NCBI GenBank assembly: GCA_964106915.2
Contig: OZ066917.1
Source: Podarcis gaigeae
Lineage: Eukaryota
DNA: 64,000 nucleotides
Strand: one strand, 5' to 3'
Shown: positions 4,724 to 8,312 of the stretch, piece after piece
How positions within the stretch are numbered: the stretch's first letter is position 1
How the letters are laid out: every line of letters starts with the position of its first letter
The notes under the pieces: model-generated
What the model was told of the DNA's origin: nothing
Database searches by the model: none
The model's input: the letters and a program-made list of their open reading frames with translations, nothing else
Translations under genes and position numbers: made by a program

Positions 4724-4862
4724 TAGTGGCGTAGCGTGGGTTGTCAGCACCCAGGGCAAGGCAAGTAATTTGCCCCCCCAACCCGTGGATTTGCGCACCC
4801 TAACCCCCAGATGTTGCACCTGGTGCGGCCGGCCCCCCTGCACCCCCCACGCTACGCCACTG
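4724..4862 (-). mobile_element. hAT-type MITE, second copy of the 2803 family in opposite orientation
   Basis: TIRs TAGTGGCGTAGCGTG/CACGCTACGCCACTG; perfect 8-bp TSD CCTGTGGG at 4716-4723 and 4863-4870. Confidence 0.9.
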
Positions 4863-6298
4863 CCTGTGGGATCTTAAACTTATTTGCAATACTTGAAGTA
4901 GACTGCAGTAGACATCTGATCTGATCACTATTTTTTGCCATTCCATTGGGCCTTGATGCAGTGAGACTTTCCTCTTCTATTCCCAATCCGCCTCCAATCT
5001 AAAAATAAAGAGAAGTACGGTGAACATGCCAATAATGTTTGTAGTATACGGAACACCAGGAGAGGAATTTTAATGATGAAACTACAAGGGCCTTGCAAAT
5101 GGTTGCAGTCGACTTGTTGCACAAGTAGACAGAGTGAATCATTTTACCACTGAGTCAAGTAAACAATTTTTAGTGAAGTCTCACAACTGGGCTAGCTTGC
5201 ACCTGTTAAGACGGGAAGAAGAGAAGCATGCTGTCTTTTGCCAAATCTGTTCTGAAGGAACATGCTATTTGGCCGGCAGAAGACAGGTCAGCACTGGCTC
5301 TTTCTCCCCAGTGTCACTTAAAATAACGAAAGTTCCTTTCTAAGGGAGGAGGAAACATAACCTGCCACTTTCATTACTTTTATTTGCCAAGCAGCTGTGT
5401 TTACCAAAAAAAAAAAAAAAAAAAAAACCACCCTAAAACAAAACAAAAAAATCCAAACCCCATGTTATGAATTTTAGTTTTGTTTAGAAGAACTTTGAGA
5501 AGAAAACTGGTGTAGAACTTAAGGAAGAACTTAAGGAATCTCAACAGTGTATTCATGTTTGTTTTGTTTCCTCTTATTAATAGCTAGTTTTAATTTATCT
5601 CCCCCCCAAATAATGTGCTACAATTATTTCCTAGCGACTGAAGTAACGGCAGCAAAAAGAGAAGAGCTAATTAAACCCAGATTCTGGCTGATGGATCTAG
5701 CCAACAAGCCACTCATGATTGCAACAGATGTTTCTGCTTCTTGGGCCAAAGGAAACTTTATAAGGTTTTTCCTCCCTTTTGGGGACATATGCCAGAACAG
5801 TCAGGAGATGGGAAGTTTATAATTCTGTACAAAAGAGTACATAATACAAGAGGAACAAGGAAGCTGGTGTGTGTGGGGGGGGCAAATTCTGTTGTAGTTA
5901 TACAGACACAAGTCACTCCACCCTGACTAGGAGTTATTTATACATTTCAGAAAATTAAGAATTGCAGTTAACTTTGCTCACCGACAATTGTAAAGCCAGA
6001 ACTTTACTATTTCATTTTTATTTATTATCTCACTGGTAGGTGAAATAAACGCTAACTCATATCCATAATTTTAATTTAGATTTCATGTAAAATGTTTAGA
6101 GGATTTTTACAATTAAGCAGTATACAAATTCTGTTAAATAAACAAAATAGGTCATCTCTCAGAGAGCTCAGCTAATGCCTAAATATTGAATTGAACTCAT
6201 GTCTCTGAGATTTTAATTTAGGTTTACAATTAATGCCGCAGACAGAGCAATCATATGTATGTCTATTCAGAAGTCCCACTGAGTTGAATGAGACTTAT

Positions 6299-7488
6299 TG
6301 TGGTTCGAGGACCCGACCCCCGCGAAGTAAAATGAAGACACAGGGACACACGATATAAGGTTAATGGGCTAGAAAAGGCCACAACTTTATTGATTACAGC
6401 AATGAAAAGGTATTGGCTTAGGCATTGGATCGCGAAACAAGTGGGTTTATTCACCAGGGGTTCATCACCTGTTGATGCTAATCCAACTATAGGCTCACCC
6501 CTGATGTCACCGAGGGTCATGCCATGGCCTCCCGCCAAGCAGGCTTCGGACAGAATACACGACCGCCAGATTCCTTTAGCAGAATACCCCTAGAGATTGA
6601 AGGCATAGGCGATGGCCACACCTAGCACTTCGACACACCACAACACATTATTCCAATGCCTAACCGCCACCCGAGCTAAAGGCTCGCCGCCAATACCTTC
6701 AAAGCTGCAACCAATCCCAGATGCTTTTGCTGACACTAGCTAACCAAATGTCGTTCCCCAGATCCGATAAGTGGACACCGTCATTCCGGTATAAAGCTTC
6801 GTCGCTGATCCGGATACGGTCATGATAAATGACTCGGCCATACATAAAGTGCACCCAACGGGCTACCGCCCGATTTACGAGTTTCCTGGTTCTTTCAATG
6901 GCCATACAGCTTTGCGCACCGCACCAAACAGTTCATTTCAAGAAGGAGGACCAGAACACCGTTTTTCTGGGACACAAGGCTGCAAATGCATTCAAGTCTC
7001 TTTTTATGCTCCACAACAAGTCCACACTCCTTCTGTTAGCGAGGTGATTCTCCCCCAAATGAATTACAAGGATGTCGGGAGGGCCGAACTTGGCTACTTT
7101 CTCCCACAGCAATGGCATAAGCTCCTCCCAATGCATGCCTCTTCTCGAAAACCAGGAAACTCGAACACCATGTGGAAGGCCAAGATTGTGTGCAAGGCCG
7201 CAGCTCACCGCTCGTATGCGGGCCCAATGAACTATACTGTGGCCGCAAATCCACACGCTTCTCGACTCGCACAGGATGACAAAGAGAAATGAGGCCGGGG
7301 AAAGGCTGGCACTGCAGCATAAAGGTTGCTGGACACGCCCCCCCCATGGCACCTGGTTGGACGGCCACCGGGGGGGGGCGTGAGTGCCAGCCAGGTGAGC
7401 TGGAGGCAGGGGGCAACGCCCCCTGCTAGGAGCAGTGTTCAGGCTCCCGCCCACAACCACTCCCCTCTCTTTCAGGGAGGAGAGTCTT
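6299..7488 (-). mobile_element. Short non-autonomous DIRS/Ngaro-like (tyrosine-recombinase class) retroelement carrying only an SGNH hydrolase ORF
   Basis: CpG-rich block in AT-rich DNA; SGNH ORF; minus-strand AATAAA at about 6386-6391; it splits a small host repeat (CAGAAGTCCCACTGAGTTGAATGAGACTTA | TCCCAGGAGACTGTGCATAGAATT) with no TSD, only T microhomology. Confidence 0.7.
6699..7270 (-). pseudogene. SGNH/GDSL hydrolase ORF of the DIRS/Ngaro-like element, broken by one in-frame TGA (6933-6935)
   Basis: ORFs 6933..7529 and 6699..6905 are in the same frame, joined by K*TVWCGAQSC. Motifs: block I VWICGHSIV, block II RRG, block III IHLGENHL, block V YRNDGVHLS. The TGA is compatible with CGA deamination. 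Confidence 0.85.
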
Positions 7489-8312
7489 TCCCAGGAGACT
7501 GTGCATAGAATTGGAGGCCTGGCTATCACAGTGGAAAGTTAAGGGAAAATGTAAATGTTCATGAAAAAAATGTTCCCTTCTCTGCCAACCCTGAAAAGAC
7601 AAAAGTTGCAATTTTGTGAAAATTCAGTGAAATCGTTTCACTATGAAGACCCAAATAGTTCCTTTAAAAATCTGCTTAATTTCTATACTAAATTACAATG
7701 TCTCCAGTCTTCATAGTTTGCAAAGTACTGAATTCAATGGTCCTACAGGTTAAGAAACAATGATTTTCTCCATGGCTCCATAGCATACCTTTGGAAAAAT
7801 AATAATACATTTTTGCACTAAAAGTATCTGAATAAAACAGAAATGAAGAATAGGAACAAAGTGAAATACTTCAGAGGTGCAAGAAAGTAATAATAGTCCT
7901 ATTAGATAATGAAAGAAGCAACAATAGATGGCTTGTATTGACTTCAAATTGTAAGGAGATTAAAAACAAAAACAGAACAAAAATATAATAGCATTTTATA
8001 TTACTTTAAAACTCTTGCAAAATACCTCAGGTTTATTATTTCAGCAAAAAAACATAGGTGTAACATAGGTTATTTCTATGGATTTCAGTGCAATGTGACC
8101 AGATTCACATCTCCTGGACTAATATGCAGATCAAATATAATAATGCTTTGGATTTTACACTTCTCTGAACTTTATGATATAATTTCTCAGCTCAAAAAAT
8201 TACCAAAATAGATTTGAAAATGCATATTTTAGAATGACATAATTTAGAAATGCATGCATTGACATAAATACATATCTAAATAGGATATTTTATATAAGAT
8301 ACATATTTTAAT

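Follow-up and report, generated by a model that had tools for sequence, protein, structure and literature searches.

The hydrolase-bearing element in the window, the 64,000-nt stretch of Podarcis gaigeae DNA analysed here, is a one-off, dead and internally truncated copy of an Ngaro retrotransposon. It holds only a repeat A, a hydrolase remnant and one repeat B, whereas gag, reverse transcriptase (RT), tyrosine recombinase (YR) and the internal B1-A2 joint are missing (Table 1). Since it has a single A and a single B, lacks a start codon and carries an inherited stop, the copy is unable to code or to rebuild its ends. Taken by itself the locus is of little importance, being an ordinary dead fragment among hundreds. 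The break spot that it shares with many of its relatives gives a hint at the copying mechanism of a class of elements that is poorly understood. Leads at the level of the family are a hotspot of breakpoints, one-ended copies, a conserved splice acceptor and a folded spacer.

Structure of the element in the window

An extent of 6299..7488 had been proposed from the letters of the window, and these boundaries are correct to within 1 nt; in the genome the locus lies at G000:C8, ~68,888,300-68,889,490. The left flank of the element matches 14 other genomic places. All seven intact copies of the small host repeat that were inspected continue with sequence resembling the right flank of the window element (8–14 of 22 positions identical, ungapped). 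Consequently, the insertion split the host repeat and left an AA dinucleotide on both sides. The flank matches and the recombinase-type ends thus support the proposed insertion as a unit between the two halves of a host repeat. The description "without a TSD" holds insofar as there is no true duplication, but the wording should be a 2-nt AA core on both sides.

The GC-rich boxes and the 3' AATAAA of the sequence-only reading were found. The "leader" and "3' region" that contain them are real segments too, but they are actually the split direct repeats A and B of the element. Window A is 96% identical to A1 of longer copies and to the internal A2 of copies ending in B1-A2-spacer-B2, and window B matches the B1 and B2 repeats of sister copies at 95–99% identity. 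The leader-hydrolase junction exists as well, although at 7264/7263 and not at 7265-7290. About 6.5 kb (UTR, gag, RT and YR) are missing at this junction.

Table 1. Features of the truncated Ngaro copy and its flanks, in window coordinates.
Feature	Position	Strand	Remarks
Whole element	7487-6300	minus	AA on both sides, 7489-7488 and 6299-6298
Split direct repeat A, 226 nt including AA core 7489-7488	7264..7489	minus	GC boxes at 7423 and 7342
Putative core promoter/start region	7264..7323	minus	TATA-like TTTATG 7323-7318; pyrimidine-rich initiator-like motif at ~7290
Junction A/hydrolase	7263..7264	minus	Last A base joined 8 nt after parental hydrolase ATG
SGNH hydrolase remnant	6699..7263	minus	GHS, GEN and DGVH motifs kept; without start codon; one in-frame TGA
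Split direct repeat B, 368 nt including AA core 6299-6298	6298..6665	minus	Single B; AATAAA at 6451 and 6391
Interrupted small host repeat, left half	6225..6299	plus	Matches elsewhere in genome
Interrupted small host repeat, right half	7490..7515	plus	Resembles continuation in intact repeat copies

The hydrolase frame runs from 7262 to 6699 and is interrupted by a single in-frame TGA at 6935-6933. It was confirmed that no in-frame ATG precedes the GHS motif, since both leader ATGs (7347 and 7320) are out of frame. In the window copy the SGNH hydrolase identity is weak by Pfam (Lipase_GDSL_2, E 0.016), but it is clear from the structure model of a sister copy that is 88% identical. The predicted model has a pLDDT of 90.9, and Foldseek matched it to GDSL/SGNH hydrolases down to E 2.8e-8 (4iyj, TM 0.78). 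Searching PDB sequences with the hydrolase gave 0 matches at an E cut-off of 10. Among named proteins, those of lacertid lizards come closest (85% identity).

The motifs of the SGNH residues (Ser, Gly, Asn, Asp-x-x-His) are present in the window, but they are split by the stop and lack a start. Since the TGA is common to three other copies, the stop was inherited. The window hydrolase is 98.2% identical to its nearest copy, and four changes are unique to it, all of them nonsynonymous. A domesticated hydrolase gene under selection would fit the long near-open frame with SGNH motifs and the promoter-like A upstream. In such a gene, however, an in-frame stop ahead of the DGVH motif, the missing ATG and the exclusively nonsynonymous unique changes are not expected, and the length of the frame reflects the youth of the copy; we give domestication practically no credence. 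The dN/dS of 0.16–0.18 between hydrolase subfamilies points to selection in the active lineage and not at the window locus.

Among 25 distinct hydrolase copies one TGA is common to 11 (copies given: L036, L037, L038, L039, L009, L198, L033, L015, L012, L019 and L041), and another TGA to four. Source elements whose hydrolase was already dead have thus been copied more than once, which shows that the enzyme is not required in cis.

Parent family and expression of the hydrolase

The genome was searched with the window element, and the best 40 of 2392 candidates were scored; the query fell into three blocks. Sister copies end in hydrolase-B1-A2-180-nt spacer-B2, and the full form of the parent family is A1-UTR-gag-RT-YR-hydrolase-B1-A2-spacer-B2. 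In the longest copies (L045-L048, ~8.5 kb), which represent one event duplicated with its flanks and have A1 cut at the 5' side, gag-like, RT and integrase-family ORFs lie ahead of the hydrolase. The split direct repeats A1...B1-A2-B2 were seen by self-comparison of L045, L048 and L032, and also occur in a second family (L229/L226).

The parental RT is matched by Pfam RVT_1 (E 1e-8 and 2e-11), and the recombinase ORFs by Phage_integrase (E 3e-4) and a SAM-like domain (E 2e-4), both under the Pfam curated cut-offs. Pfam gave no RNase H match after RT in the ORFs scanned; by eye there may be a resemblance to RNase H. No methyltransferase was matched in the seven parental ORFs scanned. The SGNH hydrolase after YR is recognized in the parents by Pfam (E 3e-5) and by a fold match. 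Among copies with both ends read, the AA core is present on the right side in 35/35 and on the left side in 28/35, 20 further rows having been left out for want of a matched B end.

The split direct repeats, the order RT, YR and SGNH hydrolase and the core-type integration support the Ngaro-group origin that had been suggested for the element. Based on this structural layout, the parent family most probably belongs to the Ngaro superfamily. A LINE ORF1 esterase, which the sequence-only reading had named as the finding that would speak against it, is at odds with parents that carry RT and integrase-family ORFs upstream of the hydrolase. The ORF1 esterase of ZfL2-1 (PDB 4c1b) is likewise a retroelement-borne SGNH fold (Foldseek E 2.5e-7; PMC3905857). 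It shares only 19% identity with the Ngaro hydrolase, however, and lies inside LINE ORF1, whereas the Ngaro enzyme is encoded after YR, between split repeats. Lipid and membrane binding was proposed for the ZfL2-1 esterase (PMC3905857) and is a lead for the role of the Ngaro enzyme.

The Ngaro-like elements DIRS-53_XT and DIRS-54_XT from Xenopus have the same split repeats A1...B1-A2-B2 together with gag, RT, YR and an SGNH ORF, and a similar size of A (236 in Xenopus, 226 in the Podarcis family; PMC9210276). In contrast to them, the Podarcis family has the 180-nt unique spacer between A2 and B2, and the window copy is reduced to A, hydrolase and one B. Degenerate Xenopus copies that have lost repeats were reported, with no breakpoint mapping in the text examined (PMC9210276). 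DIRS-1 of Dictyostelium is similar in that its YR integrates via a short shared core and leaves no true TSD, in that an internal copy of the terminal joint serves to rebuild its ends, and in its linear cDNA and an RT acting in trans (PMC7192593). It differs by inverted repeats with an ICR and by a methyltransferase, where the Podarcis family has split direct repeats and a hydrolase.

A polypyrimidine tract and YAG are found six codons before the V/I-W motif of the hydrolase, in phase 1, both in the parent family and in a distant young family. The hydrolases of the two families are ~37–55% identical in aligned blocks. The acceptor AG is kept in 17 of the 18 distinct parental contexts listed, whereas the ATG right after it is not conserved and is GTG in one subfamily. 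Hence, the Ngaro hydrolase is probably expressed as a spliced exon. The conserved acceptor thereby suggests how this hydrolase, which is without proven function, is expressed. A branch-point-like motif, the polypyrimidine tract and the phase-1 acceptor were observed just 5' of the hydrolase at L003:1440-1500 and L226 ~4810-4860, but no matching donor turned up. Contigs from four runs were aligned on the young family; 15 of 32 joints are listed and include no GT..AG, which has no bearing on splicing.

Two origins had been offered for the window element. The first is a retrocopy of a spliced subgenomic RNA in which the leader is joined to the hydrolase exon. The acceptor upstream of the hydrolase, conserved in both families, makes a spliced hydrolase RNA plausible, and the window nucleotides directly before the join are also AG. 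Such an RNA is very unlikely to be the origin of the window copy, however. A GT donor is missing at the 5' side, since in the parents A is followed by AGG, AAC, ATC or ACC (UTR or spacer). By comparison with parental copies, the window copy is joined 10 nt beyond the conserved acceptor, and all 23 sister copies with a match starting here keep the upstream tract. Moreover, if the RNA began late in A, its retrocopy alone would not account for a complete A. A spliced retrocopy is thus largely refuted, and we consider it hardly credible.

The second origin, membership in an amplifying non-autonomous satellite family that carries only the hydrolase, could draw on another A-hydrolase-B copy of 1.14 kb, the only one more among the 40 places scored, on further copies of similar composition and on the non-autonomous sublineages L223 and L224 of the parent family. 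However, the 22-nt window junction has one genome-wide match at up to two mismatches, and the 1.14-kb copy and all comparable copies seen are each joined at a point of their own. None of the 11 genomic matches to the end of A followed by AGGAG runs into hydrolase. The window copy also lacks the canonical internal B1-A2 joint, and its hydrolase is broken. In this assembly a satellite family is therefore highly improbable, barring copies that lie in collapsed or missing sequence. A junction unique to this locus and a missing segment without splice signals, the combination that the sequence-only reading had itself held against its proposals, are what was found.

The sublineage L223:4950-7161 and L224:5008-7282, to which L136, L147 and L152 also belong, lacks most of RT, and a ~93-nt unit is tandemly repeated across the 5' part of its hydrolase. 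It represents a genuine non-autonomous subfamily.

Breakpoints at the end of repeat A

Repeat A starts 623 times in the genome. The first 100 of these starts gave 97 places, four tandem duplicates being counted once, of which four are internal A2 repeats and 93 are host-flanked A. The A-only and junction classes were called by visual inspection of alignments. On this basis, the 93 comprise 52 solo A-spacer-B copies, 19 copies in which A runs straight into an internal or 3' point, 13 with A alone, four with A and some UTR before a jump, and five with A and UTR in an unresolved class. None of these older-family insertions is an intact full-length copy (five unresolved). The window copy belongs to the class in which A is joined to an internal point.

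The 52 solos have counterparts elsewhere. SIRE of Trypanosoma cruzi, which consists of A2, ~30 bp and B2 of VIPER, is a similarly short A-to-B derivative (PMC6681497), and in Cafeteria Ngaro solo AB repeats are a direct counterpart (PMC8547959). The window copy differs from both, because it has hydrolase and not spacer between A and B and represents a single event.

In 17 of the 19 direct junctions the left break lies in the last 21 nt of A; the others are at -71 and -163. Compared with a uniform break within A this clustering has p ~5e-11, the nine UTR cases being counted as misses (17/28). The right breaks fall in B (six), spacer (two), A2 (one), the hydrolase region (four), YR (three), RT (two) and gag (one), with a lean to the 3' end as expected for premature cDNA ends. 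All but one of the 19 junctions have one B. Among the A-only copies, 10/13 stop in the last 35 nt of A. In 4/13 a repeat of the left flank, with lengths of 14, 7, 5 and 4 nt, follows directly after the insertion (p ~1e-4). In an earlier, non-random sample of 22 junctions (one without a parent match) the overlaps at the junctions are 0–14 nt, with occasional fillers. A-only insertions with a left-flank repeat were recorded at L182, L179, L183, L205, L099 and L168, and in L099 and L168 the final bases of A are repeated as well.

In both families a TATA-like motif is located 56–60 nt before the end of A, in the second family as TATTTAA at 56 nt. We take the TATA-like and initiator-like motifs to have their usual meaning and spacing in a promoter. 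From these motifs transcription may start ~27 nt before the end of A, so that transcripts would begin with this last stretch of A. The breakpoint zone would then coincide with the stretch of A carried at the RNA 5' end.

We lean towards truncation at birth, that is, incomplete cDNA joined to a fixed A end, with an enrichment of such copies later as full-length copies were purged. The transcript would begin ~27 nt before the end of A. When the cycle runs normally, the B|A joint would be copied into a DNA that ends where A ends, and the last nucleotides of A would link this DNA to the distal end of the finished cDNA. If reverse transcription halts early or jumps, in the window copy at the hydrolase start, the fixed A end may be joined to the premature cDNA end, either bluntly or over a short microhomology. 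A tyrosine recombinase provided in trans would still insert the resulting molecule at an AA target, using its B|A joint. Short copies would then outlast the full-length ones, which are purged, and A-only copies with flank duplication would be one-ended integration events. For DIRS-1 mostly linear cDNA and an RT acting in trans were reported (PMC7192593), and for L1 in a lizard truncated copies were fixed and full-length copies purged (PMC3787681).

A serious rival is deletion after insertion: a complete copy inserted, then lost its interior by microhomology-mediated break repair at a hotspot at the end of A1, and lost A2 and spacer by recombination of B1 with B2. It agrees with the solo AB repeats of Cafeteria Ngaro, which were attributed to recombination (PMC8547959), and with a 7-nt word common to the parental breakpoints. 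This word is shared by the A1/UTR boundary and the hydrolase start of the parents, two nucleotides of it being absent from the window copy, and it is compatible with both a DNA deletion and a template switch. Deletion, however, needs two events at most loci, as 18/19 direct junctions have one B. It also gives no ready reason for a break zone of ~20–35 nt in both A1 and A2/spacer contexts, for right breaks crowding at the far 3' end or for left-flank duplications after A-only copies. The latter duplications count for truncation at birth, since deleting a full copy would not create them. The reciprocal class gives truncation at birth no support, because a right-flank duplication at the left end of copies lacking A is scarce, with at most 1/10 (4 nt). 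Subfamily discordance between A and B, scored with coarse clusters, was found in 1/43 non-solo and 2/55 solo copies. As A2 and B are on the same RNA and the clusters are coarse, this test of mosaicism is uninformative on template switching.

Deletion is also favoured by the age contrast with the second hydrolase-bearing Ngaro family, which is very young (L229:2327-2751 and L226:1-6661, G000:C1, ~28,296,326-28,303,360; L227; L228). Three of its copies are 99.8–99.9% identical, and a single score is common to 114 of the 150 hydrolase matches listed. The majority of the insertions sampled are complete (~7 kb) and have AA at their ends. A tally by hand among the first 100 of 391 A starts gave 57 insertions, namely 44 full length, nine solos, three unpaired A1 and one candidate A-end break; in the 93 older insertions no intact copy was found (five unresolved). 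Motif counts of 391, 405 and 413 in the whole genome show no drop at the end of A. Breaks at the A end are thus rarer in the young family (1/57 compared with 27/93, p 8e-6), while their ratio to solos (1:9 compared with 27:52) does not differ significantly (p 0.16). At most about 9% of copies would be broken at the A end at birth in the young family. Hence, truncation at birth needs a strong later loss of full-length copies. Weighing these points, we regard later deletion as possible but doubtful.

The spacer after A2 folds back from its first base (z -2.0; 7/200 shuffles as good). Its inner helices are kept in the distant family, with 8/52 pairs changed on both sides (four sequences, three of them close). 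The multi-helix structure is a candidate priming or packaging signal. An Rfam scan of B1-A2-spacer-B2 for a ribozyme fixing the A end gave only two chance-level matches. Between the two families the spacer (L031:8827-9006 and L226 ~6084-6241) is more conserved than the coding DNA would suggest.

More generally, it is conceivable that the DNA to be integrated carries a free end whose position is fixed at the A end, where the folded spacer begins, that the recombinase integrates linear incomplete molecules, even one-endedly, and that the hydrolase is expressed as a spliced exon; we put this combined proposal forward tentatively. If true, the broken copies would preserve a so far unobserved step in the retrotransposition of split-repeat YR elements, and Ngaro elements would make LINE-like 5'-truncated copies, but with the left repeat restored. 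LINE copies are truncated with a variable 5' loss and an intact 3' end, and retroviral strand-transfer deletions have a fixed break at the strand-transfer point. Compared with both, the window copy keeps its left repeat whole and was integrated by a recombinase at an AA core.

The replication experiments in the DIRS order that were considered here concern DIRS-1 with its inverted repeats (PMC7192593). In the case of split-repeat elements, only models exist so far for where priming and strand transfer take place and which form of DNA integrates. The hotspot of 20–35 nt, the one-ended insertions and the spacer fold are exact places to test such models, and the RNA and cDNA ends could be observed in the young family of the same genome. 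A-end breakpoints or a spliced Ngaro hydrolase did not appear in titles and abstract openings of the literature searched, a scope outside which the founding Ngaro, PAT and kangaroo papers and Repbase lie. PAT elements have a preferentially deleted region, so that part of the breakpoint pattern may be in print already.

Three further observations concern single loci. At L124:251-703, A is followed by ~160 nt of UTR and then by an inverted piece of A. A lizard protein annotated "lipase member M-like" (P0020) includes a segment that matches 29% of the Ngaro hydrolase at 78% identity; either its gene model or a real transcript has taken up a fragment of an Ngaro element. The 29.5-Mb contig G000:C32 contains 13 of the 40 best hydrolase places, including four copies duplicated with their flanks, and is possibly, as a guess, a sex-limited chromosome of low recombination.
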